Positions 818 through 27,980 are shown, numbered from the stretch's first letter. The stretch is DNA of 31,567 bases from an uncultured Candidatus Saccharibacteria bacterium (GCA_964530195.1 CAZGXQ010000030.1:1-31567); one strand, 5' to 3'. Translations and numbers: made by a program. Notes: a model not told the origin generated them from the sequence alone.

Positions 818-840
818 AAAAGCCGGGCGAAAAACCCGGC
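818..840 (-). terminator. intrinsic terminator of the 857-1039 orphan gene
   Basis: GCCGGG-7nt-CCCGGC stem (822-840) followed by TTTT on the minus strand. Confidence 0.75.
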
Positions 841-856
841 CAAAACTTGAAAGGAG

Positions 857-1039
857 CTATTTTGATATCAAGTTTTCAATTGCTCTAAGAATGTCTGCCT
901 GTGCAGGACTAGTTTGTGTGATGCGAAAGCAAGCAACAATTTCTTCTCCTCTCTTTAGATAAACAAAGTCAGGATCTTCCCAAAGAGAAAAACCTTCGGA
1001 GAGTTGAAAGTTCAACATTGCATTGGGTATTTCCCACAT
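857..1039 (-). CDS. small orphan protein, 60 aa (start moved from 1048 to ATG 1039)
   Basis: SD AGGAGGTG (1053-1046) lies 6 nt before ATG 1039. Own promoter TTGAAT-17-TTTAAT with TG extension (1092-1064). Own terminator. No family recognised. Confidence 0.7.
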   Translation of the reverse strand: MWEIPNAMLNFQLSEGFSLWEDPDFVYLKRGEEIVACFRITQTSPAQADILRAIENLISK

Positions 1040-1095
1040 ATTTCTCACCTCCTGTTTAATTTAATTAAATCAGAAAACAATTAGAAATTCAAATT

Positions 1096-1124
1096 TTGAC
1101 AGTAAAGAAAAAAGCATATAAATT
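1096..1124 (+). promoter_or_regulatory. promoter for the PadR-HhH-efp operon
   Basis: TTGACA (1096-1101), 17 nt, TAAATT (1119-1124), 12 nt before ATG 1137. Back-to-back with the orphan promoter. Confidence 0.55.
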
Positions 1125-1136
1125 AAAATTAATAAT

Positions 1137-1454
1137 ATGCTGCCTTTTGAAAGATTAAGGAAATTAAACACAATAGACAATCTTTGGCTGTACATTCTCT
1201 TTCTTTTAAAAGAAAAAGAGCTTTATGGTTGGGAAATTCCAAAATTGATTGAAGAAAAATTTAATTTTCGACCAGGAAAAATTACCCCCTATCGCGTCCT
1301 TTATAGATTGGAAAAAGATGGATTTGTCAAAAGCAAAATGAAAGAAAGAAGAAGAGTTTATCAGATTACTAAGAAAGGTGAAGAAGAACTAAACAAGGCA
1401 AAGGATTTTTTCAAAAAATTGTTAGAGTTTTTTAAAGAAAATGACAAAAAATAA
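1137..1454 (+). CDS. PadR-family winged-helix transcriptional regulator
   Basis: LYILFLLKEKELYGWEI ... YRVLYRLEKDGFV ... RRVYQITKKGEEEL, the PadR signature. Confidence 0.88.
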   Translation: MLPFERLRKLNTIDNLWLYILFLLKEKELYGWEIPKLIEEKFNFRPGKITPYRVLYRLEKDGFVKSKMKERRRVYQITKKGEEELNKAKDFFKKLLEFFKENDKK

Positions 1455-2136
1455 AAAAATTAAAGAAATAAAAAACAAAGAAATTGCCAAAACTTTAAAA
1501 GAAATTGCAAAACTTTTAGAAATTGAGGGAATAGCGTTCAAGCCAAAAGCTTACCAGAGAGCAGCTGAAACTATAGAAAAATTAGAAACAGAATTAAAAG
1601 AAATTTATGAGAAAGAAGGAATCAAAGGACTTGAAAAAATTAAAGGTATTGGGAAAAGCATTGCCCAAAAAATTGAAGAAATTTTAAAAACTGGGAAAAG
1701 TAAGTATTTGGAAGAATTGAAAGAAAAAAACAGAATTAGAATTATTGTGACTCATTATTTTGAGACAAAAGGAGTGAGTTTGGATCAATTAAAAAGAGAT
1801 GCAAGAAAAAGAAAGATAATTTATTCAAGATTTACAAAACCTGCAAAACAGCTTTTGGAATTAGCAGGATCTTTAGAAAAAGCAATAGAAGCTATTGATA
1901 AAGTGGCTGCTTGGGCAAAGTCAAGAAATTTAGATTATGCTATTGAAACTGTCTTTAAAAAATGGTTAGAATTAGATAGATTAAAGCCAAAAGAGGTCGT
2001 AAAAAAACCTTACTTTCAAGGAAATCCTATGGTTTGGTCAGAAACAAAGAAAAAGTGGTATGTTATTACACCTGAGGGTGAATGGTTAGAATTTGCAGGA
2101 AAAGAATCGGATATTGAATGGCGAATTGAAAAATAA
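1441..2136 (+). CDS. DNA polymerase X/beta N-terminal (8-kDa lyase/HhH) domain fused to an unknown C-terminal domain; no polymerase domain
   Basis: NKEIA..LKEIA.LLEIEG..FKPKAYQRAA.TI ... IKGIGKSIAQKIEEILKTGK matches the PolX N-terminus. Residues after about 85 are unrelated to the PolX catalytic core. Confidence 0.8.
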   Translation: MTKNKKIKEIKNKEIAKTLKEIAKLLEIEGIAFKPKAYQRAAETIEKLETELKEIYEKEGIKGLEKIKGIGKSIAQKIEEILKTGKSKYLEELKEKNRIRIIVTHYFETKGVSLDQLKRDARKRKIIYSRFTKPAKQLLELAGSLEKAIEAIDKVAAWAKSRNLDYAIETVFKKWLELDRLKPKEVVKKPYFQGNPMVWSETKKKWYVITPEGEWLEFAGKESDIEWRIEK

Positions 2137-2137
2137 C

Positions 2138-2704
2138 ATGCTTTCATATTTTGATTTAAGAAAAGGAACAAAATTTATCTTAAATGGACAACCCTATGAG
2201 GTTTTAGATTTCAAACAGGTAGGCAAAGCTCAAGATGTGGTAGTAGCTAGAACAAAAATTAGAAACTTAATTACAGGGGAAATTTTAGAAAAAACTTTTC
2301 ACCAAAGCGACACTTTTGAAGAAGCAGAATTAGAAAAAGTTGAGGTCAAATTTTTATATTCCCACAGAGGAAAATTTGGCTTTTGCGAGGTAAACAATCC
2401 CAAAAATAGATTTGAATTAACAGAAAAACAAATTGGAGAATCTGCAAAATTTTTAAAACCCCAACAAATTCTCACTGGTATTAAGTTTGAAGGAAAATTT
2501 ATTAATGTAATTTTACCGATTAAAGTTCAATTGAAGGTAATAGAAACCCCACCCGGGGTCAGAGGCGATAGAGCTCAAGCTGGAACAAAAATTGCTGTTT
2601 TAGAGACTGGAGCAAAAGTAAATGTTCCTCTTTTTGTTGAAGTTGGGGATATTATTGAAGTGAATACTGAAACCGGAGAGTATGTAAGGAGAATTCAAGA
2701 ATAA
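2138..2704 (+). CDS. efp: translation elongation factor P (start moved to ATG 2138)
   Basis: DLRKGTKFILNGQPYEV ... RTKIRNLITG ... TPPGVRGD ... LETGAKVNVPLFVEVGDIIEVNTETGEYV. ATG is 1 nt after the upstream stop. Confidence 0.95.
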   Translation: MLSYFDLRKGTKFILNGQPYEVLDFKQVGKAQDVVVARTKIRNLITGEILEKTFHQSDTFEEAELEKVEVKFLYSHRGKFGFCEVNNPKNRFELTEKQIGESAKFLKPQQILTGIKFEGKFINVILPIKVQLKVIETPPGVRGDRAQAGTKIAVLETGAKVNVPLFVEVGDIIEVNTETGEYVRRIQE

Positions 2705-2731
2705 AAAAGGCCAGAGTAAATTACCCTGGCC
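2703..2731 (-). terminator. intrinsic terminator of the 2732-3538 orphan, convergent with efp
   Basis: Minus strand GGCCAGGGTA-ATT-TACTCTGGCC followed by TTTTTT. Confidence 0.75.
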
Positions 2732-3538
2732 CTACTCCAAAGTCCACATTGAACGATGAAATCTTGGATGCTGAATTAAACGGGGTTGCCAATTTTCTCC
2801 AAAAAATGAAACAAAGACATCACTAAGAATTTTTTCCATTATAATAGGTACCTTATCTTTTCTTTCTGAAATCGTAGGGACTTTTTTCAAAATTTCAACC
2901 ATTCTTTCATATTCAACCTCCTTACCTCTTAAAAAAGAAAGAATTTCTTTTATGTCCCAAATTTCAACATTAAATCTTTGTTGAATAACTGGAACTGTAG
3001 CTAATTCCCACATTAACTGTTTGAAGTCCAAAGAGGCTCTAATAATAGGAATTTTTGGAGTATTCATCCAAAGGAACATTTCTTCTTCGCTCAGTGCATC
3101 TAAAATTTCAGAAAAGTTGATTTTTGAAGACATTAGAAAGATCTTAATAACTTCTTCTCCCAAAAAGGATGCAACCACTTCGCACAAAAGAATATAAACT
3201 GGATAAATACTAAATCTCAAAAAAAGCTGAACCCTTCTTTCTCCTTCCTCCTTTGGTATGTGTTTTAAATTAACTTCTACTCTTAAATCTTCAAATGCTT
3301 CCCCGAACTCTTCGCCCATTTTACACATCGTTATTACTCTTAAGAAGCGAATTAAACTTTTTTCAGAAAAATTATGCAATAAATCAGGTGAAGCGTGTAT
3401 TAAGTGGATTTTTCTTCCATCAAGTGTGAGCATAGCTTCTGTCCAACACTTCATCTCCCCTTCTACAACCTTTAAATATACTGGTCGATTTAAATCCATT
3501 TTCCTGGCAAGCGCTGCCAACATTTCCACACTCTTCAT
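2732..3538 (-). CDS. orphan hypothetical protein, 268 aa
   Basis: Long ORF with SD AAAGGAGGTGG upstream, TTGACA at 3595-3590 and its own terminator. No family recognised. Confidence 0.8.
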   Translation of the reverse strand: MKSVEMLAALARKMDLNRPVYLKVVEGEMKCWTEAMLTLDGRKIHLIHASPDLLHNFSEKSLIRFLRVITMCKMGEEFGEAFEDLRVEVNLKHIPKEEGERRVQLFLRFSIYPVYILLCEVVASFLGEEVIKIFLMSSKINFSEILDALSEEEMFLWMNTPKIPIIRASLDFKQLMWELATVPVIQQRFNVEIWDIKEILSFLRGKEVEYERMVEILKKVPTISERKDKVPIIMEKILSDVFVSFFGENWQPRLIQHPRFHRSMWTLE

Positions 3539-3643
3539 TACACCACCTCCTTTAAAGAGCTTTTTATTTTTAACAAAAATTTAAAAAATTGTCAATAAGA
3601 ACATTTGAGAAAAGAATGTCTTAAATAAAGTTATAAAAATTTG

Positions 3644-3714
3644 TTGCGGGGGTAGGATTCGAACCTACACACTCAGCTCCAAAGGCTGATGTCCTACCAT
3701 TAGACGACCCCGCA
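3644..3714 (-). tRNA. tRNA-Gln (anticodon TTG), CCA not encoded
   Basis: Acceptor TGCGGGG/CCCCGCA (U1-A72), anticodon arm TCAGC-CTTTGGA-GCTGA, T-arm GTAGG-TTCGAAT-CCTAC. Confidence 0.95.
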
Positions 3715-3735
3715 ATTGATGCTACAAAAAGTTTA

Positions 3736-4830
3736 TCAAAATTTTGAACAAATTTCAACGATTGCTAATTCTAAAGGTAATTGTAAAATTGGAGAAAATT
3801 TCATTTTGTTTTGAGCATCCAAAAACACAACAATCATTCTTCTTAAATTTTCTTCAGTAATTTTTTTTGATATCCTCTCAATTTTGTTTATTTCATCCTC
3901 TCCCCTACTTTCTGAAATCAAATCCTTACCCCCAAGTTTAAAAACTAAAATGTCTCTTAATAAAGAAATCAAATCCTTAGCAAATTCTTGAAGGTCTATT
4001 CCTCTTTCATAGATTGAATTTAAAAATTCAATAGCTTCTTTTAATTTTTTTTCAATTATTAAATCAAAAAAATTAAAAAGAATTTCACTTTCTACCAAAC
4101 CTAACAAATTTTTAACATCTTGAGCGCTAATTTCTCTTTCCCCAAAAAGAGCGAAAATTTGATCCAACAAGCTTTCGGCATCCCTTAAGGAACCTTCTGC
4201 TTTTTGAGCTAAAATTTCTAGAGCCTCTTTTTCTATTTTTATTCTTTCTTTTTCAACAATAAACTGGAGCTTTTTTAAAATTTCCCCCTTTGTTAATCTC
4301 CTAAAATCAAATCTTTGGCAACGAGAAAGAATTGTTGGAATCATCTTATGAACTTCAGTTGTTGCTAAAATGAAAATGGTATGAGCTGGAGGTTCTTCTA
4401 AAGTTTTTAATAAAGCATTTGCTGCCTCTTTTGTTAATTGATGAGCTTCGTCAATAATGTAAACTTTGTATTTTGATTTTGAGGGTACAAACCTTATTCC
4501 ATCTCTTAATTCTCTAACTTCATCAATTCCTCGATGAGAAGCAGCATCAATTTCAATCAAATCCATTGACCTTCCTTCTTGAATTTCAATACAAGATGTA
4601 CATTCACAACAAGGCTCAAACTCTCCCTCTTTTCTTTTTTGGCAATTTAGTGCCTTTGCAAAAAGACGAGCCAAGGTTGTTTTCCCAGAACCTTTAGGTC
4701 CATAAAATAAATAAGCGTGAGAAATTATTCCAGAAGCTATTGCATTAGAAAGAGTTCTGGCAATGTGTTCTTGCCCAATAAATTCTGAAAATTTTTGAGG
4801 TCTATATTTTCGATAAAATGCTTTGGTCAT
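3736..4830 (-). CDS. dnaX: DNA polymerase III subunit gamma/tau (short, 364 aa)
   Basis: YRKYRPQKFSE, Walker A GPKGSGKTT, Zn motif CQ...CCECTSC, EIDAASHRGIDEVR, IIDEAH, TILSRCQRF. Confidence 0.97.
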   Translation of the reverse strand: MTKAFYRKYRPQKFSEFIGQEHIARTLSNAIASGIISHAYLFYGPKGSGKTTLARLFAKALNCQKRKEGEFEPCCECTSCIEIQEGRSMDLIEIDAASHRGIDEVRELRDGIRFVPSKSKYKVYIIDEAHQLTKEAANALLKTLEEPPAHTIFILATTEVHKMIPTILSRCQRFDFRRLTKGEILKKLQFIVEKERIKIEKEALEILAQKAEGSLRDAESLLDQIFALFGEREISAQDVKNLLGLVESEILFNFFDLIIEKKLKEAIEFLNSIYERGIDLQEFAKDLISLLRDILVFKLGGKDLISESRGEDEINKIERISKKITEENLRRMIVVFLDAQNKMKFSPILQLPLELAIVEICSKF

Positions 4831-5447
4831 TTCCTGAACACAAAAATTTTATAACCAAAGAAATTCCAAAACATTACCACTAAAGTAGCAAAAATTTTGA
4901 TCAAATTCATTAGGGCTCCAGCTGAAATTTTAAAATAAGAAAGAAAAGTGGTTCCCAAAAAGACAATTGTTGAATTCAAAAAAAGACCAATTAAACTTAC
5001 AATTAAAAATACAATAAACTCTTTTTGGACCATTTTTGTTTCAATTTCAAATGTCCAAGCTTTGTTCAGAAAATAAGAATTTGTAGCAGCTAATAAAAAG
5101 GAAATAGCATTTAAAGGAATAATTTTCAAGCCCTTCACGATTCCAGTTACTGCCGATAAGAAATTTAAAGTTCCAATGTCAATTAAGGTATTTAAAACTC
5201 CAACTTCAGCAAATTTTGCAAATTGAAAAATTAAAGGGAAAAAAGAACGAAAAACTGAAGCAATTTTTATTCCAAGTAGAAAAATTAAAGGGAAAATAAA
5301 AAGAGAAAGAAAGCTAAATTTTTTTAAAATCAAAAATTTTTCGAATTCCCTAATTTTGGGGTTCAAAATAATAAAAAGAAAAAAAATAGCAGATAAGAAT
5401 CCACACAGTAAGGGAAAATAAACATCTTTTTTATTTTCAATTTTCAT
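4827..5447 (-). CDS. GtrA-like membrane protein (lipid-linked sugar flippase family) with N-terminal TM extension
   Basis: QFAKFAEVGVLNTLIDIG ... NSYFLNKAWTF ... WNFFGYKIFVF. Overlaps the dnaX start by ATGA. Confidence 0.85.
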   Translation of the reverse strand: MKIENKKDVYFPLLCGFLSAIFFLFIILNPKIREFEKFLILKKFSFLSLFIFPLIFLLGIKIASVFRSFFPLIFQFAKFAEVGVLNTLIDIGTLNFLSAVTGIVKGLKIIPLNAISFLLAATNSYFLNKAWTFEIETKMVQKEFIVFLIVSLIGLFLNSTIVFLGTTFLSYFKISAGALMNLIKIFATLVVMFWNFFGYKIFVFRK

Positions 5448-5976
5448 TTTTCTTTTTTGAAAACAACAAAAACAAACTTATTAAAATTAAGAAAACAAAA
5501 ATTCCTGCAATTCCAAAGTTTTTTTCTAATATAATTCCTGTTTTTGTGGCAAAGAAAACCAAAATTGAACTTAAAATTACTCCAGCGCTTATTGCAAAAA
5601 ATGCAACCTTAAAAGGGAGTCCTAATAAAAAGCTAATAATTGATCCGGCCCAAGCTCCAGTAAAGGGAAGAGGAATTCCTACAAATAAAGCTAACCCCAA
5701 AAGATTTTTAAAGCTTTTCGAGCCATATTTTTTTTGGAGCCTTGAGAAAAAGAAATCTGAGAAAGATTTCAAAAAAGAAACCCTTTGAAAAAGGGATGAT
5801 TTTAGAAAATTCAAAAAAATAAAAATTAAAGGCACAACTAAAACATTTCCTAAACTTGACCAAAAGAAAGCTTCAGAATCCTTTAATTTGAAAAAGACTA
5901 AAGAAAAAGGCAGAGCGCCTCTTACTTCTGCAATTGGCAACATTGCCATCAAAAAAGTTGAGATCCTAGGATCCAT
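5437..5976 (-). CDS. COG2426-type small multidrug export-like membrane protein
   Basis: [13 protein letters not shown] ... [18 protein letters not shown] motifs; several TM segments. Confidence 0.8.
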
Positions 5977-5984
5977 ATTTTGCT

Positions 5985-6030
5985 ATTTTACCAAGTTAAA
6001 ATGGACAAGTAAAGCCAAAGTTTATAAAAT
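5985..6030. promoter_or_regulatory. divergent leaderless-type promoters (COG2426 operon and cysS)
   Basis: Minus: TGG-TAAAAT (5993-5985), 8 nt before ATG 5976. Plus: TGGACA-17-TAAAAT (6002-6030), 7 nt before ATG 6038. Confidence 0.65.
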
Positions 6031-6037
6031 TAAATTG

Positions 6038-7420
6038 ATGATTAAATTTTTTAATACCCTATCTAGAAAAATTGAGGTTTTTAATCCATTAAAAAATAAA
6101 AAAGTTGGGCTTTATACTTGCGGTCCTACAGTATATTGGTTTGCACATATTGGAAATTTAAGAACTTATATTTTTGAGGATGTATTAAAAAGAGTCTTGC
6201 TCTATAATGGCTACAAAGTAAAGCATGTGATGAATATCACTGATGTTGGACATTTAGTTTCTGATGAAGATGTAGGAGAAGATAAAATTTTATTGGCGGC
6301 AGAAAGAGAAAAAAAATCGGCAAAAGAAATTGCTAAATTTTATGAGAAAGCTTTCAAGAAAGATTTGAGAAGATTGAACATTTTAGAGCCCGATGTTTGG
6401 GTAAGAGCTACCGAAACCATTAAAGATCAGATTGAGTTTATAAAAATTTTAGAAAAAAAAGGTTTTACTTATTTAACCGAAGACGGAGTTTACTTTGATA
6501 CCTCAAAATTGAAAAAATACGGAAGACTTTGGCCAAAGGGAATGAAAATTTTACCAGGAGCTAGAGTTGAAATTATTCCTGGAAAGAGAAATCCAACAGA
6601 TTTTGCTCTTTGGAAGTTTGCAAAAAAAAGAAAAGAAATGGTTTGGAATTCTCCCTGGGGAAGAGGTTTCCCTGGTTGGCATACAGAGTGCGTTGTTATG
6701 GCAAAAAATTTTTTGGGAGTGCCATTTGACATTCATTGTGGAGGAATAGATCACATTTTGATTCATCATACTAATGAAATTGCCCAAGCAGAAGCTGCTT
6801 TTTCAAAAATTTTGGCAAACTATTGGTTACATGGTGAGTTTTTATTAGTTGAAGGAAAAAAGATGGCAAAATCTTTAGGAAATGTTTTTACTTTAAATGA
6901 TTTGATACAAAAAGGATTCAATCCTCTCTCTTTCCGCTACTTTTGTCTTCAAGCTCATTATAGATCAAAACTAAATTTTACCTTCGAAGCTTTAAAAGCA
7001 AGCGAAAGCGCCCTAAAAAATCTTTATAGTTTAGTTTCTTTTTTAGCTTCACAAAAAAATAAAAAAATCAACCTCAAAAAAATACAAAAAGAAAAAGAAA
7101 GATTTTTAAAAATCGTTAACGAAGATTTGAATACTCCCCAGGCTTTAGCCTTAATGTGGGAAGTTTTGTTAAATAAATCTTTGAATGAAAATGAAAAATA
7201 TTTAATTTTAACTGATTTTGATAGAATTTTTGGATTGAATTTAGATAAAATTCCAGCCTTGAAGATTCCGAAAAAGATTGAAAAAATGGTTTCAAAAAGG
7301 GAAAAGTTGAGAAAAGAAAAAAAATGGGAAGAAGCAGATAAGATTAGAGAGAAAATAAAAGAAGCAGGATTTATAATAGAAGATACAGAAAGTGGACCAA
7401 AAATTAGAAAAATTTTTTAG
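6038..7420 (+). CDS. cysS: cysteine--tRNA ligase (start moved from 5888 to ATG 6038)
   Basis: [56 protein letters not shown]. The upstream 50 codons overlap the opposite-strand gene. Confidence 0.97.
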
Positions 7421-8558: not shown

Positions 8559-8568
8559 TTTTTTCCCT

Positions 8569-8581: not shown

Positions 8582-8585
8582 AACG

Positions 8586-11222
8586 ATGACAGATAATTCT
8601 CAAATTGAAAAGCTACCTCCTCAGTCAATTGAAGCAGAGAAATCTCTTTTGGGATGTTTGATGCTCGATAAAGACGCAATTTTAAAGGTAATTGATTTTC
8701 TCTCCCCTCAAGATTTTTATAAAAGCGCACACCAAGAAATATATTTAGCTTGTCAAGAACTTTTTGCTAAAGGAGAACCAATTGATATTCTCTCCCTTTC
8801 AAATAGATTAAAAGAAAAAGGAAAATTAGAAGAAGTTGGTGGAATAAGTTATTTAACTGAATTAGTAAACAGTGTTCCTACTGCAAGCCACGTTTTCCAT
8901 TATGCAAAAATTGTTCAAAAGAAGAGGATTTTGAGAGATTTAATTTCAGCTAGTCAAGAGATCGCACTTTTGGCTTATGATGAAAGTCAAGATCCTGAGA
9001 AAATTTTAGATGAGGCCGAAAAAAGAATTTTTAGTATAGCTCAAAAAGGAATTACTCAAAACTTTATTTCAGTAAAAGATACCTTAGAAGAAGCCTTTAA
9101 TAGAATTGACCAACTCTCAAAACATGGAGGGGGTTTAAGGGGTATTCCAACAGGATTTTCAGATTTAGATAACATTTTAGCCGGTCTTCAAAAATCAGAT
9201 ATGATTATTTTAGCAGCCAGACCTACATTAGGAAAAAGTGCCTTTGCTACTTGCATTGCGGCAAACGCTGCAATCAAATACAAGGTACCTGTTGGCATTT
9301 TCTCTTTAGAAATGTCAAGAGATCAGATTGTAGATAGATTAATTTCTATGGTTTCTGGCGTGGATTTGTGGAGAATAAGAACAGGAAGATTGTCAGCTGA
9401 AGGAGAAGATAATGATTTTACTAGAATTAGAAATGCATTAAGTGTGCTCGCTGAGGCCCCAATTTATATTGATGATGGAGCTGCAACTAATATTTTACAA
9501 ATGAAAGCAATGGCAAGAAGACTTCAGGCAGAAAAAGGTTTGGGGTTATTAATTATTGATTATCTTCAATTAATTCAACCCTTAAATCCCAAAGCCTCAC
9601 CAGTGGAACAGGTTTCTGAGAATTCAAGAGCATTAAAAGCTTTGGCAAAAGAACTTAACATTCCAGTATTAGTTATTTCTCAACTTTCAAGAGCAGTAGA
9701 ACAAAGATCACCTCAAATTCCAAGACTTGCAGATTTGAGACAGTCAGGATGTTTAGCAGGAGATACTCTTTTAACTAGAGCAGATACCGGAGAGAGAGTG
9801 AAAATAAAAGACTTAGTGGGAAAAAAAGATATTTTAATTTATACCCTTGATAAAGATTGGAAGTTGAGAGTTGGGAAAATTTCTAAAGTTTTTTGGAGCG
9901 GAAAAAAGAAGGTGTATTTATTAAAAACTCGAAGTGGATTTGAGATCAAAGCTTCAGCCAATCATCCTTTTAGAAAATTTGATGGTTGGTATCCCTTAGA
10001 AAAACTAAAAATTGGTGACAAAATTGCTACAGCTAAAAAACTCATTCCCTTTGCCCCTAAAAACGAACTTTCTGAAGATGAAATCATTCTCTTGGCCCAT
10101 CTTTTAGGTGATGGTTGTGTAGTTGAGCATCAACCTATTCATTATACGAGTAGCAGTTTAAGAAATATTCAAATAGTTGCAAAAGCTGCAAAGAAATTGT
10201 TTAAAATAGAACCTCGACTCGTCCGCCAGGAAAACTGGTATCATCTTTATCTTCCATCCCCATACCATTTAGCACCAGGAAAACATCACCCGATTATAAA
10301 TTGGTATGAAAAATTAGGATTGAAACCCGCTCATACATGGGAAAAGGTTATACCCGAAGCTGTTTTTACTCTCGATAAAAAGAAATTGGCTCTTTTTCTT
10401 TCTCATCTTTGGGCGACAGATGGAAATGTTAGCGAAAGAAAAATGAAAAAAAGAAAAGCATCTACCGCTTTATTTTACTCTACAACTAGTTTAAGAATGG
10501 CTCAAGATCTAAAAGAGCTTTTGTTAAGATTTGAAATTAGAAGTAGAATTTCTGAAAAGAAAAAAGTAGGTTATAAACCATGGTATATGGTTGAAATTCA
10601 GGGAAAAGAACATCAAATGAAATTTCTTAAAGAAATTGGAGTTTTTGGTCAAGAAAAGATTGTAACTAAATTGATAAAAAATCTTGAAAAAATTGTTCCA
10701 AATACCAATTTAGATGTAGTACCAAAAGAAGTTTGGTATTTAATCGATGAAATAAGAAGGAAAAAAGAATTAAGCTGGAAACAACTTTGCCAGAGTTTAG
10801 GAGTTGCTTTTGGAGGGAGGAATTCTTTATTCAAAAGAAATATCAGTTTCCAAAGATTAAAAATAATAGCTAATCATCTCTCTTCTCCAGAACTTTCAAA
10901 TTTAGCTGAAGGGGATGTTTTTTGGGACGAAATTGTTTCAATCAAACCTTTAAAAGTTGAGGATGTTTATGATCTTACTATTCCAGGAACTCATAACTTT
11001 TTGGCTAATAATATTATTGTTCACAATTCGATTGAACAAGATGCGGATGTGGTTTTGTTTATTTATCGTGAAGATTATTATCGTCCAGAAACTTCAAGGA
11101 AAGGAATTGCCGATATTATCGTGGCTAAACACCGAAATGGTCCTGTGGGAAGAGTTGAATTATACTTTGATGAAAGAACTGTAAGTTTTAGAGATTTAGA
11201 AAAAGGTTTTTTTGAAGAATAA
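8586..11222 (+). CDS. dnaB: replicative DNA helicase DnaB containing an intein
   Basis: LPPQSIEAEKSLLG, GIPTGF, ARPTLGKS, IIDYLQL, LSQ-type VISQLSRAVEQR, DLRQSG|intein|SIEQDAD, IIVAKHRNGPVG. The spliced product would be 452 aa. Confidence 0.98.
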   Translation: MTDNSQIEKLPPQSIEAEKSLLGCLMLDKDAILKVIDFLSPQDFYKSAHQEIYLACQELFAKGEPIDILSLSNRLKEKGKLEEVGGISYLTELVNSVPTASHVFHYAKIVQKKRILRDLISASQEIALLAYDESQDPEKILDEAEKRIFSIAQKGITQNFISVKDTLEEAFNRIDQLSKHGGGLRGIPTGFSDLDNILAGLQKSDMIILAARPTLGKSAFATCIAANAAIKYKVPVGIFSLEMSRDQIVDRLISMVSGVDLWRIRTGRLSAEGEDNDFTRIRNALSVLAEAPIYIDDGAATNILQMKAMARRLQAEKGLGLLIIDYLQLIQPLNPKASPVEQVSENSRALKALAKELNIPVLVISQLSRAVEQRSPQIPRLADLRQSGCLAGDTLLTRADTGERVKIKDLVGKKDILIYTLDKDWKLRVGKISKVFWSGKKKVYLLKTRSGFEIKASANHPFRKFDGWYPLEKLKIGDKIATAKKLIPFAPKNELSEDEIILLAHLLGDGCVVEHQPIHYTSSSLRNIQIVAKAAKKLFKIEPRLVRQENWYHLYLPSPYHLAPGKHHPIINWYEKLGLKPAHTWEKVIPEAVFTLDKKKLALFLSHLWATDGNVSERKMKKRKASTALFYSTTSLRMAQDLKELLLRFEIRSRISEKKKVGYKPWYMVEIQGKEHQMKFLKEIGVFGQEKIVTKLIKNLEKIVPNTNLDVVPKEVWYLIDEIRRKKELSWKQLCQSLGVAFGGRNSLFKRNISFQRLKIIANHLSSPELSNLAEGDVFWDEIVSIKPLKVEDVYDLTIPGTHNFLANNIIVHNSIEQDADVVLFIYREDYYRPETSRKGIADIIVAKHRNGPVGRVELYFDERTVSFRDLEKGFFEE
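9750..11027 (+). mobile_element. intein (426 aa) with LAGLIDADG homing endonuclease at the RESG/SIEQ DnaB site
   Basis: Begins CLAGDT, block B ASANHPF, blocks C and E LLAHLLGDG and FLSHLWATDG, ends HNFLANNIIVHN followed by Ser+1. Confidence 0.96.
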
Positions 11223-11872: not shown

Positions 11873-11901
11873 TTGACAAATTTTAAAAGATTTTTTATAA
11901 T
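11873..11901 (+). promoter_or_regulatory. perfect-consensus sigma70 promoter of the 11992 orphan
   Basis: TTGACA (11873-78), 17 nt, TATAAT (11896-901). Confidence 0.85.
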
Positions 11902-11925
11902 TAATATAGCTCTTTTACAAGAAAA

Positions 11926-11978
11926 CCCCTTAAGTCCTACCCAAAAAAGTAGGCGCCTGACCGAAAGGCAGGCAGGGG
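11926..11978 (+). ncRNA. candidate structured 5' leader (three-way junction); no known family assigned
   Basis: P1 CCCCT/AGGGG, P2 CCTAC/GTAGG, P3 GCCTG(A)CC-GAAA-GGCAGGC, immediately before SD AGGAGGT. A GC-rich island in very AT-rich DNA. Confidence 0.5.
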
Positions 11979-11991
11979 GAAGGAGGTAAAA

Positions 11992-12294
11992 ATGAGCAAC
12001 TTGAAAGAAGAGTTTGAGAGGTATCTTAAGAAAAACGGATTTCAAATTAGCTCGTTTCTTCTTATACTTGAGGACACGGATTCTGGCTCTGGAATTTCGG
12101 TATTTAGTTTCATTAAGGCGTTATTATCCCAATATTCGATGGGGAAAATTATGGAACTAATTGGAGCTTTAGTAGTCTATCATTTTGCAGAGATCAGGCT
12201 AGAAAACAAGGACTTGAAAATTTTGTTGACGCAAGAAGGAAAAAATGCAGTAGCTAAACTCAAAAGCTTAATGGGCCACAAACCTGTAAAGTAA
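11992..12294 (+). CDS. orphan protein, 100 aa, possible degenerate winged-helix C-terminus
   Basis: SD AGGAGGT 4 nt before ATG; own promoter and terminator. Tail ELIGALVVYHFAEIRLENKDLKILLTQEGKNAVAKL resembles the MarR/PadR wing ('LT..G'). Confidence 0.75.
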   Translation: MSNLKEEFERYLKKNGFQISSFLLILEDTDSGSGISVFSFIKALLSQYSMGKIMELIGALVVYHFAEIRLENKDLKILLTQEGKNAVAKLKSLMGHKPVK

Positions 12295-12308
12295 GAAAAG
12301 TTTTTGAG

Positions 12309-12338
12309 GACCTGAGCGGAGCTTGCTCAGGTCTTTTT
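12309..12338 (+). terminator. intrinsic terminator
   Basis: GACCTGAGC-7nt-GCTCAGGTC (9-bp perfect stem) plus TTTTT. Confidence 0.85.
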
Positions 12339-20041: not shown

Positions 20042-20066
20042 GATTTTCCACAAAAGATGATTATTA

Positions 20067-20221: not shown

Positions 20222-20242
20222 AAGTTTTTTAAAAGATATTTT

Positions 20243-22816: not shown

Positions 22817-23201
22817 AAAAAAAAGTTATAATGGAAATTAATGGCAAAAACAACCAAAAGATTAAAACCGTTGGTGCTAAAATTAAAACGAAAATTTCAA
22901 ACAGAAGACCAAATAAAATTACAAAAGTTCTTATAAAAGCACCAAGAGTTCTTGAAATTAAATTTGAAAAGCGAACCTCAAAAAACTGCCAAATGTCTAT
23001 TCCTCTTGAAGTATAAACCCAGCGGTAACCATGCCAATGGGAAAAATAGGTTTTTAAAAGTAAAGTGATAGAAAAAAAATAATTTCCAAATTTTAGAAGA
23101 TTTTTGAAAATCAAAAGAATTTTCTTTGGAATTTTAATAAAATACCAATCGTAAAACAAAAGCAAAAGGGATTTTCTTTTTACAGTTTCTAAAAATTCCA
23201 T
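22794..23201 (-). CDS. hypothetical membrane protein, 135 aa, coupled to the Clp-like ATPase
   Basis: Hydrophobic ORF with a C-terminal TM hairpin; overlaps the ATPase start by 23 nt. TGG-TATAAT (23216-23208) lies 6 nt before its ATG. Confidence 0.75.
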   Translation of the reverse strand: MEFLETVKRKSLLLLFYDWYFIKIPKKILLIFKNLLKFGNYFFSITLLLKTYFSHWHGYRWVYTSRGIDIWQFFEVRFSNLISRTLGAFIRTFVILFGLLFEIFVLILAPTVLIFWLFLPLISIITFFYGFKLLF

Positions 23202-23216
23202 ACTTTAATTATACCA

Positions 23217-23897
23217 TTATCTTTCCACCATTAAAAATCTGAATTTTTTAAATTGGTCGCGAAAAAATCTAAATTTTTTGAATTTTAATTTACTTAAAAT
23301 TTTTTCAATCTCCTCTTTTTGTAATGGATCAAATTCCATAAAGAGAAGCCCCTCCTTTTTTATATGATCTCTTGCTTCAGTTAAAAATCTCCTAATCCAA
23401 AAAAGCCCATCTTTGCCACCAAAAATTGCTCTTTTTGGTTCATAAAGCAAAACCGATTTTTGGACTTCATTTATTCTTTCTTTTGCTACATATGGAGGAT
23501 TAGCAAAAATAAAATCATATTTTTTGTTTTTGATTTTTTCAAATAAATTTGAAAGAAAAATCTTGTACCTTTTTTTTGGAATTTTATTTAACTTTAAGTT
23601 TATTTTAATTTGCTCTATTGCTTTTTTGTCTATATCAACAAAGTCAACAACACTATTTTCAATATTTTTTAAAATGGCAATTCCAATACACCCAGAACCC
23701 GAAAAGATATCTAAAAATTTTGGCTTTTTCAATTTACAACTTGCAATCTTCAATCTGCAATCTTTTATAGCTTTTTTTACCCAGAATTTCGTCTCCTCTC
23801 TTGGAATAAAGACTCTCTTTCTTAAATCAATTTTGCAACCTAAAAATTTAACTTCTCCCCTTTTGTATTCTTTTGGGAGCTTCTCTTTTAAAATCAT
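23217..23897 (-). CDS. prmC: HemK/PrmC release-factor glutamine methyltransferase lacking most of the N-terminal domain
   Basis: VFIPREET, FLDIFSGSGCIGI, FANPPY, LYEPKRAIFGGKDGL. Confidence 0.82.
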   Translation of the reverse strand: MILKEKLPKEYKRGEVKFLGCKIDLRKRVFIPREETKFWVKKAIKDCRLKIASCKLKKPKFLDIFSGSGCIGIAILKNIENSVVDFVDIDKKAIEQIKINLKLNKIPKKRYKIFLSNLFEKIKNKKYDFIFANPPYVAKERINEVQKSVLLYEPKRAIFGGKDGLFWIRRFLTEARDHIKKEGLLFMEFDPLQKEEIEKILSKLKFKKFRFFRDQFKKFRFLMVER

Positions 23898-24229
23898 TTT
23901 TTAATTAACTTTATTCCTATTTGAGAAATTTGACTTCCACCAAAAATGAAAATTCCAGCTAAAATCGATTGAGAAATTAAATTTAAAAGCTTAAAGAAAG
24001 TATCGATTGGCAATATTTCTTTTAACTCTTCTTCAATCATTTTTCTAACTTCATCTTTGCTTGTGGGGAATTTAGCTTTTGTTGAGGGTTCTGTTTTTTT
24101 AGCTTCAACTTTAAAAATTTCAGGAATTTTTTCTTTTCCAGTGAAGATGTTATAGGAAAAATATAGGGTCGAAAATATCATTATTAATCCAATAATTAGC
24201 AATATCCAACCAAAAATTTTTGTAGCCAT
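23894..24229 (-). CDS. hypothetical two-TM membrane protein
   Basis: Two hydrophobic segments flank a charged loop; ATGA overlap with prmC. Confidence 0.7.
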   Translation of the reverse strand: MATKIFGWILLIIGLIMIFSTLYFSYNIFTGKEKIPEIFKVEAKKTEPSTKAKFPTSKDEVRKMIEEELKEILPIDTFFKLLNLISQSILAGIFIFGGSQISQIGIKLIKK

Positions 24230-24244
24230 AAGGTTTTAAATTTT

Positions 24245-24562
24245 TTAGCGACCTTTTAGTTCGTTCAAAATGTATTCAGGGATTGGAGTTTTTCCTATAG
24301 GACTTTTTCCAGGATATTTCCAGACACTAATTATTTTTAATTTTTGATTTTCAATTTCATACATTACCCAAATCTCTTTTGGAGATTTTTTTGTTCCAGC
24401 AGTTTGCATTACAGCGATTGTTCCAGGAGCTATTCCCTCCTCTTTTCTTTCAGGTTTTTTTAAAACTCGCAAAACTCTTTTTTCTGAAAGCTGATATTGC
24501 TGTAATTTTTCTTTTGAATGTTTTGTCCACAAAATTTGATTCTGAGAAATTATAAGCTCCAT
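24245..24562 (-). CDS. DUF4258-like (RelE/BrnT-fold-like) small protein
   Basis: WTKHSKEKLQQYQLSEKRVLRVLKKP ... LKIISVW pattern. ATG 24562 is 1 nt after the upstream stop. Family call is tentative. Confidence 0.5.
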   Translation of the reverse strand: MELIISQNQILWTKHSKEKLQQYQLSEKRVLRVLKKPERKEEGIAPGTIAVMQTAGTKKSPKEIWVMYEIENQKLKIISVWKYPGKSPIGKTPIPEYILNELKGR

Positions 24563-24563
24563 T

Positions 24564-25226
24564 TTAGTCAAAAAGGTTAGAAATTAAATATCGATATTTT
24601 AGTCTATCCTTTCCCTTCCACACTTTATGAATTTTTTTGATCCACTCTTTTTTCCAAAAAGAAGGTTCAGGCAAAAATAAAAAACCATCTTTATATCCCA
24701 AGTATCGTGTTTTAAATTTTGAATGTAAAAACGCTAAAATTGCACAATAAAATGCCATTTTTTCATCTTCATTTTTAAAGCTAATCTTTTTTTCTTTTAA
24801 AATTTCTTCAATCTTTTTGAGGTTTAAAATTTTTTCTAAAAAAGTGGGGAAAACCTCAATTAAATTTGTGTCTAAAACAAAACCTCTTTTTTCTAATTTT
24901 CTTTTTAATTCAAAAGCAAAATCACAAAGTTGAGGCATTAAAGCAGGAGGAATAGGATTAATTTTATTTTGCCGAAATATTTTTTGTGACAAAAATTTTT
25001 CAAAAAGTCTCATTTTTCCCTTACCCCTTCCTTTAGTTAAGGGTGCATCAATTGCAATTACTTTTATTGATTTTAAGTAAGGGGAGATTTTTTTAAGCAA
25101 CTCTTTCCCAAAAATTTTATCTTTAAAATAGATTTTTATCCCATCATCTTCTTTTAGAATACAAATTCCGGTTGTTTTGTTTTCTCTACCCCCCAGATCA
25201 ATTCCCAAAAATAAATTCTCTTTCAT
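24564..25226 (-). CDS. DUF429-family RNase H-like putative nuclease
   Basis: FLGIDLGG, VIAIDAPL, IEVFPT motifs. Confidence 0.72.
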   Translation of the reverse strand: MKENLFLGIDLGGRENKTTGICILKEDDGIKIYFKDKIFGKELLKKISPYLKSIKVIAIDAPLTKGRGKGKMRLFEKFLSQKIFRQNKINPIPPALMPQLCDFAFELKRKLEKRGFVLDTNLIEVFPTFLEKILNLKKIEEILKEKKISFKNEDEKMAFYCAILAFLHSKFKTRYLGYKDGFLFLPEPSFWKKEWIKKIHKVWKGKDRLKYRYLISNLFD

Positions 25227-25462
25227 TTTACTCCAGGAGAGGAAACAATTAGATAGTAACTCTCTTTAATAGGATCTTCCTTGTCTAAAATTGGTTCTAT
25301 TGCTCTCGATACTTTTGCACAATCTTCAACGCTTACCCCTCCCTTTTTATCAATTGTAATCACCAATTCTGTTTTCTTTCCTTTTTTTTGAATTTCAAAA
25401 GATACAAGCGAATATCCCATTTTTTCTATCTTTTTTTTGATTAATTTTTCAACTTTTTCCAT
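25223..25462 (-). CDS. rimP: ribosome maturation factor RimP, N-terminal domain only (79 aa)
   Basis: LVITIDKKGGVSVEDCAKVSRAI..ILD.EDPI...Y.LIVSSPG, then stop. TGG-TATAAT lies 7 nt before ATG 25462. Confidence 0.85.
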   Translation of the reverse strand: MEKVEKLIKKKIEKMGYSLVSFEIQKKGKKTELVITIDKKGGVSVEDCAKVSRAIEPILDKEDPIKESYYLIVSSPGVK

Positions 25463-25478
25463 CAAACAAATTATACCA

Positions 25479-26624
25479 TTAAATTTTACCTTTTTCTATA
25501 TCTTTTCTAAGCTTTTCAACAAAAGTGTTGAAATGAAAAAGATTATGAAAAGTTAAAAGCTTTTTTGCGGTCATTTCTTCCGCTCTAACCAAATGCGCTA
25601 GATAATTTCTTCTATAATTTTGGCAAACAAAACAAGCACATTTTTTATCAATTGGATTTTTATCTCTTAAAAATTCACTCTTTTTTAAATTTAATTTTTG
25701 GTTTTCAGAAAAAGCTATTCCATGACGCGCATAATGAGTGGGAACTGTACAGTCAAAAAGATCAATTCCATACTTTACAATCTCTTTTATATCTTCCAAA
25801 TAGCCAATCCCTAAAAGATGGCGAGGTTTTTTTTCGTTCAAATTTGGTATTACCCAACCTAAAATTTCAAATAATTGCTTTTTACTTTTTCCTAAATCAC
25901 CCCCAATCCCGAACCCATCAAAATCTAAAGAATTTATAAACCTTGCACTCTCTATTCTTAATCTTTTAAAATGAGATCCTTGGACGATTCCAAAAAGAGC
26001 CTGATTTTTACTTCTTTCTTTCAAACAAATTTTTGCCCAATAGTGGGTTCTTTCTAAAGCTTCTTTAGCATAATCAAAAGTAGCCAAAGGGGGCGTACAT
26101 TCGTCAAAGGAAAAAATAATATCTGCGCCCAAATTTTTTTGAATTTCCATTGACTCTTTTGGTCCCAAAAATAATTCTCTTCCATCTAAAGGGGATTTGA
26201 AAAAGACACCATCTTTTGTAATTTTCAAAAACCTTGGACTATCCCCTACCCTTATTTTTTCACTCTTTTCTTCTGGAAAGGTTTTTAAAACTTTTCCTAT
26301 TTTAAAATCAAATCCAAATCCCAAAGAAAAAACTTGATATCCTCCAGAATCTGTCATTAAAGGTTTTTTCCAATTCATAAATTTGTGCAATCCTCCAGCT
26401 TCTTTGATAATTTTTTCTCCAGGTTTCAAATGCAAATGAAAAGTATTGCAAATTAAAATTTGGGTTTTCGTTTCTTCCACCTCTCTGCTTTCTAAAGTTT
26501 TAACTACTGCCTGAGTAGCTACTGGCACTAAACAAGGCGTTATTACTTCTCCGTGTTTTGTTTTAATTAAGCCTATTCTTGCAAGACTTTTCTTTGATTT
26601 TTTTAAAATTTTAAACTCAAACAT
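25479..26624 (-). CDS. tgt: tRNA-guanine transglycosylase
   Basis: NTFHL, LMTDSGGYQVFSL, FDEC, IVQGS, PRHLLGIG, GIDLFDC, Zn site CACFVC...H. Confidence 0.96.
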   Translation of the reverse strand: MFEFKILKKSKKSLARIGLIKTKHGEVITPCLVPVATQAVVKTLESREVEETKTQILICNTFHLHLKPGEKIIKEAGGLHKFMNWKKPLMTDSGGYQVFSLGFGFDFKIGKVLKTFPEEKSEKIRVGDSPRFLKITKDGVFFKSPLDGRELFLGPKESMEIQKNLGADIIFSFDECTPPLATFDYAKEALERTHYWAKICLKERSKNQALFGIVQGSHFKRLRIESARFINSLDFDGFGIGGDLGKSKKQLFEILGWVIPNLNEKKPRHLLGIGYLEDIKEIVKYGIDLFDCTVPTHYARHGIAFSENQKLNLKKSEFLRDKNPIDKKCACFVCQNYRRNYLAHLVRAEEMTAKKLLTFHNLFHFNTFVEKLRKDIEKGKI

Positions 26625-26631
26625 TAATTAA

Positions 26632-26653
26632 AATATACCAGATTTGATATAAT
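26632..26653. promoter_or_regulatory. back-to-back extended -10 promoters for leaderless tgt and GTPase transcripts
   Basis: Minus TGG-TATATT (26640-32), 7 nt before ATG 26624. Plus TGA-TATAAT (26645-53), 7 nt before ATG 26661. Gap is 36 bp. Confidence 0.72.
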
Positions 26654-26660
26654 TTAAAAT

Positions 26661-27584
26661 ATGCCGGCAAATTTGCCCCCTCAATTTTTTGAAATTCAAA
26701 AGAAATTGAATGAAGCTTCTTCGATTGAAGAAAAAATTCAAATTTATGAAGAGTTATTAAGAATTGTACCAAAACACAAAGGAACAGAAAGAATTCAGGA
26801 GGATTTAAAAAGAAAAATAGCTAGATTAAGGAAAGCAGAAAAGAAAAAGCCAAAGCACACCCAATTATTTTCGATTAAAAAAGAAGGAGCGGGACAAATT
26901 GTAATCGTTGGTCCTCCAAATTCTGGAAAGTCAAGTTTACTAAATGTCTTGACCCAAGCTAATGTAAAGGTTGCTCCTTACCCCTTTACTACTCAAGTTC
27001 CTCAACCTGGAATGGTACCTTATGAAAATTTGCTTTTTCAGTTAATAGATATGCCCCCAATAACGAAAGATTTTCTTTTGGGATGGCAAAAAGAATTAAT
27101 GAAGAATGCAGATTTATTGTTAATTTTGCTGGACCTTTCAAGTGAAAATTTTTTTGAAGACTTAAATTTCTTTCAAAATAAAATTTTAGAATTGAATTTA
27201 ACAAACAAAAAAATTATTTGGGTTGGAAACAAAATTGATTTGGAAGAGGGAAAGAAAAATTTTGAAAAAATAAAAGAGAAATTTAAAATTTCACCAATTT
27301 CTGTACTAAAGAAAATCGGTTTGGAAGATTTAAAGAAAGAGATTTTTGAAAAAATGGAGATAGTAAGAGTTTATCCCAAACCTAAAAATAAAGAGCCAAA
27401 TTTTACCCAACCTCTTGTTGTAAAAAAAGGAACTAAATTAATTGATTTGGCAAAAGAAATTCATCAAAATCTTTTTGAGAATTTTAAATTTGCAAAGTTA
27501 TTCAAAAAAGATTCAAAAAAGCCAAAAATTGTGGGAAAAGAATATGTTTTGGAAGACGAAGATATTGTTGAAATTCACACTTAA
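26661..27584 (+). CDS. OBG-superfamily DRG/Rbg1-like GTPase with C-terminal TGS domain
   Basis: MPANLPP, VPKHKGT, G1 GPPNSGKS, G2 YPFTT, G3 DMPP, G4 NKID, TGS VGKEYVLEDEDIVEIH. Confidence 0.87.
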   Translation: MPANLPPQFFEIQKKLNEASSIEEKIQIYEELLRIVPKHKGTERIQEDLKRKIARLRKAEKKKPKHTQLFSIKKEGAGQIVIVGPPNSGKSSLLNVLTQANVKVAPYPFTTQVPQPGMVPYENLLFQLIDMPPITKDFLLGWQKELMKNADLLLILLDLSSENFFEDLNFFQNKILELNLTNKKIIWVGNKIDLEEGKKNFEKIKEKFKISPISVLKKIGLEDLKKEIFEKMEIVRVYPKPKNKEPNFTQPLVVKKGTKLIDLAKEIHQNLFENFKFAKLFKKDSKKPKIVGKEYVLEDEDIVEIHT

Positions 27585-27585
27585 A

Positions 27586-27614
27586 TTGACAAAATGTTTA
27601 AAAATTTATAAAGT
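27586..27614 (+). promoter_or_regulatory. promoter of the 27633 orphan
   Basis: TTGACA (27586-91), 17 nt, TAAAGT (27609-14), starting 1 nt after the GTPase stop. SD AAAGGAGG follows. Confidence 0.6.
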
Positions 27615-27632
27615 AAAAAGAAAGGAGGGGAA

Positions 27633-27947
27633 ATGAGGGAAATAAGAATTTTTAGAGAATGGAATGAGTCTAAGGAGTCTAGAGAGGGAAAACTTGAAAT
27701 TCATGTGACCGATAGATCCGACTCCCCGTCTCTAAGGGTAGTATACTTTGAAGGCTTGGTTTTGTCATTCAAAAAGGGAGAAAATGGTTATTCTTTGGTA
27801 GGCAAGGGTTATGCAGAGAAACAACAATTGGTGGATTCGAAAATAAAAATTGAAAAAAGTGAAGAAAGTTTCATTAAAGAAATTTTGGAAATAGTTGACA
27901 GATACTTTCCCTACAATCCCCCACAACTCCAACTTTCGCTCTTTTGA
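27633..27947 (+). CDS. orphan protein, 104 aa, ending in the beta-clamp-binding consensus QLSLF
   Basis: Strong SD, own promoter and terminator. C-terminus ...YNPPQLQLSLF-stop. Confidence 0.78.
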   Translation: MREIRIFREWNESKESREGKLEIHVTDRSDSPSLRVVYFEGLVLSFKKGENGYSLVGKGYAEKQQLVDSKIKIEKSEESFIKEILEIVDRYFPYNPPQLQLSLF

Positions 27948-27980
27948 AGGCGGTCTTTTTGGGCCGCCTTATTCTTTTTT
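27947..27980 (+). terminator. intrinsic terminator between convergent genes
   Basis: AAGGCGGTCT-TTTT-GGGCCGCCTT stem, then ATTCTTTTTT. Confidence 0.72.

Follow-up and report, generated by a model that had tools for sequence, protein, structure and literature searches.

How do single genes with a full set of expression signals of their own come to stand in a chromosome whose other genes largely do without them? The question is raised by a 31,567-nt stretch of DNA (GCA_964530195.1, CAZGXQ010000030.1:1-31567; hereafter the window, i.e., the whole stretch at its full length), in which an earlier note had singled out four dispersed orphan genes, here named ORPH1 to ORPH4. Each was said to combine a sigma-70-like promoter, a strong AGGAGG-type Shine–Dalgarno sequence (SD), and an intrinsic terminator, a grammar unlike that of the rest of the window. 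The explanation that we consider probable, rather than certain, is that two expression grammars coexist in this organism: a native core of leaderless or translationally coupled genes, and an accessory set of units, each consisting of promoter, SD, open reading frame (ORF), and terminator, that lie between operons and turn over fast.

By its sequence, the window is assigned to an uncultured member of the Parcubacteria/Paceibacteria (candidate phyla radiation, CPR) with a small genome. The closest reference genome is that of ‘Parcubacteria bacterium GBS-2’ (L007; CysS identity of 74%), and further relatives are metagenome-assembled genomes of Paceibacteria/Patescibacteria. The window has a GC content of ~30% and tightly packed genes, including padR, efp, dnaX, cysS, an intein-containing dnaB, recR, rplU, rmuC, the mraZ–rsmH–ftsL–ftsI–murF cluster, a Clp ATPase gene, prmC, tgt, the gene of a TGS-domain GTPase, and the gene of a giant Cys-rich surface protein. 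Several metagenomes carry contigs of the same organism, the longest of which has 42,347 bp; the analysis covers these 42 kb of the genome, and comparisons within the window comprise 33 genes (the four orphans and 29 others).

Two sets of expression signals

All four orphan ORFs start with ATG at the coordinates listed in Table 1, and the strong SDs claimed for them were borne out: duplex energies with a generic 16S rRNA 3′ end (CACCUCCUUUC) lie between −14.6 and −16.5 kcal/mol, whereas values between +3.0 and −6.9 kcal/mol were obtained for the remaining 29, the partial GGAG motifs of a few native internal genes (ftsI and ftsL) yielding about −6.5 kcal/mol. The same four genes stand out by their 3′ ends, as the four best terminator hairpins of the window (at least six G–C pairs and a T-run) are exactly their own, and by their composition, as they have the four highest values of GC3 (GC content at third codon positions) among the 33 genes (0.29–0.41, compared to 0.209 ± 0.025 in the core). 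Each of these two coincidences alone has a chance probability of 1/40,920. Codon selection for high expression was rejected as the cause of the raised GC3, since NNC and NNG codons both increase in SD-led genes, and rplU and efp resemble the core.

The orphans do lie at operon boundaries, three of them tail-to-tail with a convergent gene (efp/ORPH2, ORPH3/rplU, and ORPH4/surface-protein gene), and ORPH1 is placed between the divergent padR and myo-inositol-1-phosphate synthase (MIPS) genes. Regarding the promoters, the description needs correction. TTGACA boxes were confirmed for ORPH2, ORPH3, and ORPH4, but the candidate upstream of ORPH1 is weak and failed the consensus scan, and TTGACA promoters also drive the native padR, dnaB, and MIPS genes. 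The −35 box therefore does not separate the two classes of genes, while SD, leader, and terminator do.

Could some of the small ORFs not be genes at all, their motifs arising by chance or from non-coding RNAs? ORPH1, ORPH3, and ORPH4 have no homologues by which selection on the protein could be assessed, and ORPH1 has just 60 amino acids (aa). However, an SD of 7–8 nt stands at optimal spacing before an ATG, and an ORF exactly fills the interval from promoter to terminator, four times over. Furthermore, GC1 exceeds GC2, as is usual in coding sequence, purifying selection acts on ORPH2 (see below), and the Rfam scan of the window matched only two tRNAs. We hence regard an artefact as hardly credible.

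The core genes follow other rules. In native operon-leading genes, a −10 box, often TGnTAnAAT, ends 6–9 nt before the start codon, which applies to cysS, dnaB, the small multidrug-export gene, tgt, the GTPase gene, the gene of a 135-aa membrane protein, and an 80-aa ORF. Transcripts started from these boxes would be leaderless and would not need an SD. Internal native genes overlap the preceding gene by 4–23 nt or start within 3 nt of it, which fits translational coupling without an SD. The divergent tgt and GTPase genes share a 36-bp spacer that is nearly identical in relatives at 86–91% nucleotide identity, and its arrangement (Table 1) points to a compact bidirectional leaderless promoter. 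Among related loci, a −10-like hexamer is located 5–9 nt upstream of 28% of first-in-operon conserved genes, compared to a flat background of ~9%. Convergent native operons would meet without intrinsic terminators: in the relatives L087 and L089, which lack ORPH4, no hairpin is found between the converging GTPase and surface-protein genes, so that intrinsic terminators belong to the cassette grammar and not to the native one. The accessory minority of lineage-specific genes (four in the window, seven on the contig) would be monocistronic and consist of a sigma-70 promoter, a short leader with a near-perfect SD (AGGAGGTG), an ORF, and a terminator. Cassettes of this kind would need an SD because they have a leader, and a promoter and terminator of their own because they are set between foreign or convergent transcription units.

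One gene conforms to neither type. The MIPS gene (1–738, minus strand) extends past the left edge of the window and is counted as native, but neither leaderless nor SD-led, since it has a leader of ~48 nt without an SD. The ORF-free region 1–800 on the minus strand, with promoter and terminator, had been a candidate for a non-coding RNA; this was rejected, as the region is the 5′ part of the MIPS gene crossing the window edge.

The leader of ORPH3 has properties of its own. For its ~85 nt, a minimum free energy of −34.1 kcal/mol was predicted (z = −3.6; 0 of 200 shuffles fold as well), and the predicted multi-helix fold includes base pairing between the transcript's 5′ terminus and the spacer/AUG region. 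The leader is without a match in Rfam and could be a translational switch or an RNA thermometer. Such occlusion of the AUG would suit a translational regulon, in which SD-led genes depend on a 30S/SD pathway and the leaderless core on 70S ribosomes, with global switching according to, e.g., growth state or host contact. The clean split of the two initiation grammars and the conserved SD of the ORPH2 family also agree with a regulon, but it is purely inferred, and the proteins share neither function nor localization. We consider it very unlikely; it is compatible with the explanation by two grammars and does not exclude it.

The number of four SD-led genes given in the earlier note proved too low. 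Three further ones of raised GC content (o156, o157, and PKD333) are located on the same contig (L097), ~4–8 kb to the right of the window edge, which makes seven on the 42-kb contig. Two of the three, o156 and PKD333, have their own TTGACA promoter and terminator, and the neighboring genes, encoding a sortase, a CAP-domain protein, the giant surface protein, and a 637-aa protein, lack an SD. No mutual similarity was found among the seven SD-led proteins. As the orphan proteins are unrelated to each other, they do not form the ‘class’ that had been suspected.

A further survey covered 1116 ORFs of 62 independent related loci in which SDs are little used; the lineage of the window itself was left out. 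A GGAGG SD was found at the true 5′ end of 39 ORFs (3.5%); strong SDs, which the housekeeping genes of the window lack, are rare in these loci as well. These SD-led ORFs have a higher GC3 (median z of +0.99 vs. +0.06, p = 6e-5; for ORFs of ≤200 aa only, p = 5e-4) and less often a homologue in another locus (31% vs. 53%, p = 0.008), a difference that is not significant when matched for length. Examples are a pilin and an Hsp20. In GBS-2, an SD-led gene of raised GC3 (L007, 11397–12395, minus strand) lies tail-to-tail with cysS and codes for a 332-aa protein with a duplicated N-terminal helix-turn-helix-like module and a TFIIB/cyclin repeat (PF00382, E = 2.5e-13), i.e., an archaeal-type transcription-factor domain in a CPR bacterium.

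Table 1. Features of the four cassettes, of a native promoter region, and of the three further SD-led genes. Positions refer to the window unless L097 is named; energies are anti-SD duplex energies; CDS, coding sequence.
Feature	Position	Strand	Details
ORPH1 candidate promoter (weak, uncertain)	1064..1092	−	TTGAAT-17-TTTAAT; alternative TTTACT-17-TAATTG; neither passed the consensus scan
ORPH1 SD	1046..1053	−	AGGAGGTG-6 nt-ATG; −14.6 kcal/mol
ORPH1 CDS	857..1039	−	60 aa, acidic, pI 4.4; without family match
ORPH1 intrinsic terminator	821..841	−	GGCCGGG...CCCGGC and T-run
MIPS gene promoter	814..787	−	TTGACA-16-TAAAAT; 6 nt past the ORPH1 terminator
ORPH2 promoter	3566..3595	−	TTGACA-18-AAAAAT
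ORPH2 SD	3544..3551	−	AGGAGGTG-5 nt-ATG; −16.5 kcal/mol
ORPH2 CDS	2732..3538	−	268 aa; five-cluster family, fast-evolving
ORPH2 intrinsic terminator	2707..2733	−	tail-to-tail with efp (end at 2704)
ORPH3 promoter	11873..11901	+	TTGACA-17-TATAAT, 12/12 consensus
ORPH3 structured 5′ leader	11908..11991	+	SD at 11981–11987, AGGAGGT-4 nt-ATG; −15.3 kcal/mol
ORPH3 CDS	11992..12294	+	100 aa; without homologue; possible winged-helix DNA-binding fold (weak)
ORPH3 intrinsic terminator	12306..12336	+	14-bp stem; tail-to-tail with rplU
ORPH4 cassette (indel unit)	27585..27968	+	384 bp
ORPH4 promoter	27586..27614	+	TTGACA-17-TAAAGT
ORPH4 SD	27623..27628	+	AGGAGG-4 nt-ATG; −15.1 kcal/mol
ORPH4 CDS	27633..27947	+	104 aa
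ORPH4 terminator	27947..27970	+	
tgt/GTPase divergent spacer	26625..26660		36 bp; two extended −10 boxes facing each other, both at 7 nt from their ATG
o156	L097 14481–14951	−	156-aa lipoprotein; 45% GC, GC3 0.45; own TTGACA promoter and terminator
o157	L097 14999–15472	−	157-aa membrane protein; start context AGGAGGTGAGAAA-ATG
PKD333	L097 17166–18167	−	333-aa PKD-domain lipoprotein; 42% GC; TTGACA-17-TATTGT, AAGGAGGTG, terminator

Gain, loss, and descent of the cassettes

The earlier note had the cassettes acquired or maintained one at a time and proposed a comparison of synteny. For ORPH4, the junction of the GTPase and surface-protein genes is covered in three relatives (L087, L088, and L089), and the complete 384-bp unit is absent from all three, its place being taken by a spacer of 5 nt in L087 and L089 and of 27 nt in L088. 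By GTPase and tgt, the window groups with L088 (91% nucleotide identity) and L087 with L089 (98%), with 86% between the pairs, and the absences are most parsimoniously explained by a gain of ORPH4 on the window branch or close to it. ORPH4 would accordingly have come as a complete unit after the split from the relative at 91% identity. Neither a target-site duplication nor a shared repeat was found at its boundaries, and in a search of 5.8 billion (5.8e9) protein clusters, ORPH4 matched itself alone, as did ORPH3.

In the case of ORPH1 and ORPH3, it is more distant relatives that lack the gene at the corresponding junction. The recR/rplU gap measures ~47–119 bp in L010, L012, and L007, which have no ORPH3, compared to 524 bp in the window, and the MIPS/padR gap 142 bp in L012, which has no ORPH1, compared to 398 bp. 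An identical ORPH1 protein was found in the same context on seven metagenome contigs. The recR/rplU junction of the distant relative L011 (7490–8241) holds two other small promoter–ORF–terminator cassettes, one of them with a 12/12 TTGACA-17-TATAAT promoter and AGGAGGTGAGAAAGC-ATG, leading into an unrelated 62-aa ORF on the other strand. Because L011 holds different cassettes there, recR/rplU appears to be a recurrent landing site. None of the four orphans is a conserved core gene. Acquisition one by one is thus well illustrated by the clean indel of ORPH4 and plausible for ORPH1 and ORPH3, but not for ORPH2, which is inherited vertically.

In the relative L004, whose efp is 96% identical, a homologue of ORPH2 with 66% identity occupies the same tail-to-tail position, with a TTGACT promoter, AGGAGGTG, and a terminator. 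The ratio of nonsynonymous to synonymous substitution rates (dN/dS) is 0.27 for ORPH2 vs. 0.02 for the adjacent efp, at a dS of ~0.8–1.0, and sequence comparison thereby places ORPH2 under purifying selection. The family consists of five clusters; an exhaustive HMMER search of 1.84 billion representatives added only three, at 22–28% identity. A TTGACA-like −35 box is present in all members, AGGAGGTG is invariant in five of five, and a GC-rich terminator follows in every locus whose contig reaches the 3′ end, including an equivalent hairpin in L004, L092, and L094. Beside one distant member lies the gene of a PMT_2 glycosyltransferase that is 66% identical to the PMT_2 of L004, whereas the ORPH2 homologues share ~22–25%. 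ORPH2 is therefore an old, vertically inherited, and very fast-evolving gene whose expression signals are better kept than its protein. Since the family keeps TTGACA, AGGAGGTG, and, where the contig extends that far, the terminator down to 22% protein identity, the cassette grammar is under selection and has not simply been brought in with the gene.

The surrounding efp–dnaX interval (2732–3714 in the window; compared with L004, L093, L094, L007, and L012) is a rearrangement hot spot. It contains ORPH2 and tRNA-Gln in the window, PMT_2 and ORPH2 in L004, and 4.6–5.6 kb of unrelated ordinary genes in L007 and L012 (encoding a deacetylase, a radical SAM protein, NagZ, RsmE, a DUF488 protein, RadC, and others). 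ORPH2 adjoins tRNA-Gln in the window, and the L004 homologue does not.

The behavior of this family also suits a different reading, according to which the cassettes are native: lineage-specific genes that evolve too fast for homologues to be detected and whose expression signals are selected, the differences at junctions resulting from loss and local rearrangement. The ORPH2 family keeps its neighbors and signals while the protein drops to 22% identity and a neighbor remains at 66%, the GC3 excess lasts in all of its lineages, and a grammar of the AGGAGGTGAGAAA type recurs in distant relatives. However, ORPH4 is physically missing in three close relatives, with 5–27 nt in its place. ORPH3, ORPH4, o156, and PKD333 deviate in GC/GC3 (0.31–0.45 vs. 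0.21) far more than ORPH2 does, and an SD-led gene of L007 carries an archaeal-type TFIIB repeat. We therefore consider native cassettes unlikely, albeit a rival to be taken seriously.

Several points weigh against the explanation by a native core and fast-turnover cassettes. ORPH2 exceeds its neighbors in GC3 in every lineage, and since such an old family keeps the excess, raised GC3 does not by itself indicate recent arrival or foreign origin; the comparison of codon usage suggested earlier did place the orphans at the top, but does not date them. In the survey, for which a simple and crude gene caller was used, terminators were not significantly enriched at SD-led ORFs (15% vs. 8%), i.e., the link between SD and terminator lacks significance outside the lineage. 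Between the 27-nt spacer of L088 and the ends of the ORPH4 cassette there is a faint resemblance, so that a gain followed by loss in L088 is conceivable. The absence of ORPH1 and ORPH3 was seen in relatives at 62–77% protein identity, among which rearrangement is frequent. Furthermore, the generic 16S rRNA 3′ end used for the duplex energies may differ from the host's own anti-SD, and none of the cassettes could be traced to a donor or vector.

Weighing both sides, we still favor the two grammars with a fast-turnover accessory set. The cassettes would be strongly expressed and stem from an unsampled accessory pool, i.e., from other Parcubacteria or their mobile elements, and would enter by illegitimate recombination without a recombinase. 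They would turn over fast, and those that persist, like the ORPH2 family, would evolve very fast while selection keeps their expression signals. A bolder version supposes a Paceibacteria pool of recombinase-free micro-cassettes, each with a consensus promoter, a maximal SD, one ORF, and a terminator. They would enter at operon boundaries, with recurrent sites such as recR/rplU taking up different cassettes from lineage to lineage, and would form, next to a leaderless core, a selected, translationally distinct class with separately controlled, rapidly evolving functions in conflict or host interaction; we offer this tentatively and think it rather improbable.

Proteins, mobile elements, and described counterparts

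The proteins themselves gave few hints. Searches of the four orphans against Pfam, NCBIfam, PHROGs, and PADLOC returned sub-threshold noise only and no curated family, and the sequences reveal neither a signal peptide nor a transmembrane segment. Invariant in the ORPH2 family are H45, E59, G75-E76, E83-D84, E98, R188, E211, E235, R262, and W265, with acidic residues and a histidine among them; a profile of five members had no match among PDB sequences or in Pfam, and an AlphaFold2 model of ORPH2 from a two-sequence alignment (pLDDT, the per-residue model confidence, of 35) gave no usable fold. The AlphaFold2 model of ORPH3 (pLDDT of 53) has the order H-H-beta-beta-H, and nearly all of its Foldseek matches are winged-helix DNA-binding proteins, with a best E-value of only 7e-3. 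Its match to a PHROG ‘transcriptional regulator’ is weak (E = 0.022), and Pfam is empty. As a weak lead, ORPH3 may be a small winged-helix DNA-binding protein. Membership in LmuC or the PHROG was not accepted; the match to LmuC (PADLOC) is partial (E = 7e-4), with neither LmuA nor LmuB nearby.

Might the cassettes be morons or remnants of lost phages, plasmids, or defense islands, carrying anti-defense, defense, or immunity genes? Their anatomy is moron-like in its own promoter and terminator, atypical composition, and presence or absence between relatives. ORPH2 has tRNA-Gln as a neighbor, winged-helix proteins of viruses and plasmids are among the closest structural counterparts of ORPH3, and ORPH3 has the weak LmuC/PHROG match. 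However, the insertions are of single genes, and all flanks are housekeeping genes (efp, dnaX, recR, rplU, the GTPase gene, padR, and similar). In accordance with the earlier note, no integrase, transposase, or target-site duplication was seen: the called genes contain no Pfam domains of integrases or recombinases, no capsid or terminase gene is present, and no flanking repeat was found. Scans of IMG/VR, INPHARED, and PHROGs and tblastn searches of phage genomes, all directed at a viral origin, gave no match at a meaningful E-value, nor did PADLOC. A role in defense or host interaction, as the note had envisaged, found no direct support in PADLOC, PHROGs, Pfam, IMG/VR, or phage genomes. We regard an origin as mobile remnants as quite unlikely. 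Hypothetically, the cassettes may still be ‘highly expressed effectors’, as was suggested from their signals.

Other known types of mobile or accessory genes fit less well. No intI gene is found nearby, and the orphans are dispersed and have their own promoters, unlike the promoterless integron cassette with its attC array. Each cassette is one gene from promoter to terminator, and not the two adjacent co-transcribed small genes of a toxin–antitoxin system. Of the features of a genomic island, i.e., an integrase or recombinase, direct repeats, and a tRNA target, only the tRNA was found, beside ORPH2 alone.

The nearest described analogues are phage morons and PeSL cassettes, which the cassettes resemble in behavior without belonging to either. 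A moron is a single gene, equipped with its own promoter and terminator, that has been inserted among the conserved genes of a lambdoid phage. Shared features are the autonomous transcription unit of one gene, a composition unlike that of the flanks, presence or absence in collinear relatives, and the intactness of the functional units around them; presence or absence applies to ORPH4, for ORPH1 and ORPH3 only in comparison to distant relatives, and the ORPH1 promoter is weak. Here, however, the units stand among the housekeeping genes of a bacterial chromosome and not in a prophage, no viral relatives were found, and the cassettes also differ from their surroundings in the mode of initiation (SD vs. 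leaderless). PeSL cassettes of T4-type phages are modules of promoter and stem-loop that bracket ORFans, with conserved repeats that recombine with each other (PMC2839356). Comparable composites, in which a GC hairpin, TTTTTC, and TTGACA combine a terminator with the −35 box of the next gene, occur three times on the contig, after ORPH1 (809–841, minus strand), o156, and PKD333. In contrast to PeSL, no two of the hairpins have the same sequence, TTGACA and the T-run being all that they have in common, and nothing points to mini-circles.

Atypical genes and ORFans have been attributed to integrative elements (PMC2718499) and are also treated as ‘atypical genes’ in GeneMarkS-2 (PMC6028130). The orphans share with them short length, restriction to a lineage, atypical composition, and lack of homologues, but come without integrase, repeat, or island, as single genes with a GC content above that of the host, and the ORPH2 family is old and of vertical descent. 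Regarding initiation, group C of GeneMarkS-2 has leaderless first genes with a Pribnow box 6–8 nt upstream, the remaining genes having an SD (PMC6028130). The native operon-leading genes described here, with a −10 box 6–9 nt before the start, are similar; however, internal native genes lack an SD (duplex energies of −6.9 kcal/mol or weaker), and only accessory genes have strong ones. In SD-poor Bacteroidia, a few genes such as rpsU keep strong SDs for regulation. Low genome-wide SD usage with few exceptions is common to both, but the exceptions here are orphan accessory genes and not the ribosomal or regulatory core. In the literature searched, we found no earlier account of SD or leaderless usage in Parcubacteria.

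Neighboring genes and implications

Two further genes of the window deserve mention. The dnaB gene (8586–11222, plus strand) is split by an intein with a LAGLIDADG homing-endonuclease domain (Pfam). The gene of the giant Cys-rich, PKD-containing surface protein (27969–31567, minus strand) extends past the window edge; its product differs in length between metagenomes (1349 aa vs. 1247 aa) and shares 79% identity with its counterpart in a relative for which the GTPase identity is 89%.

Taken as a whole, the pattern is real, but a variant of known orphan-gene or ‘moron’ behavior. CPR/Patescibacteria genomes are rich in genes that cannot be annotated, and little is known about their gene expression. 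Should the whole genome show the same split, a strong SD would serve as an inexpensive marker, readable from sequence alone, of accessory genes with fast turnover, among which genes for symbiosis or conflict would be expected. Gene-start prediction would also improve, because one ribosome-binding-site model does not fit both classes. ORPH4 offers a clean natural case of a complete expression unit gained without a recombinase, and the ORPH2 family shows that a protein can diverge far more than the signals that direct its expression.

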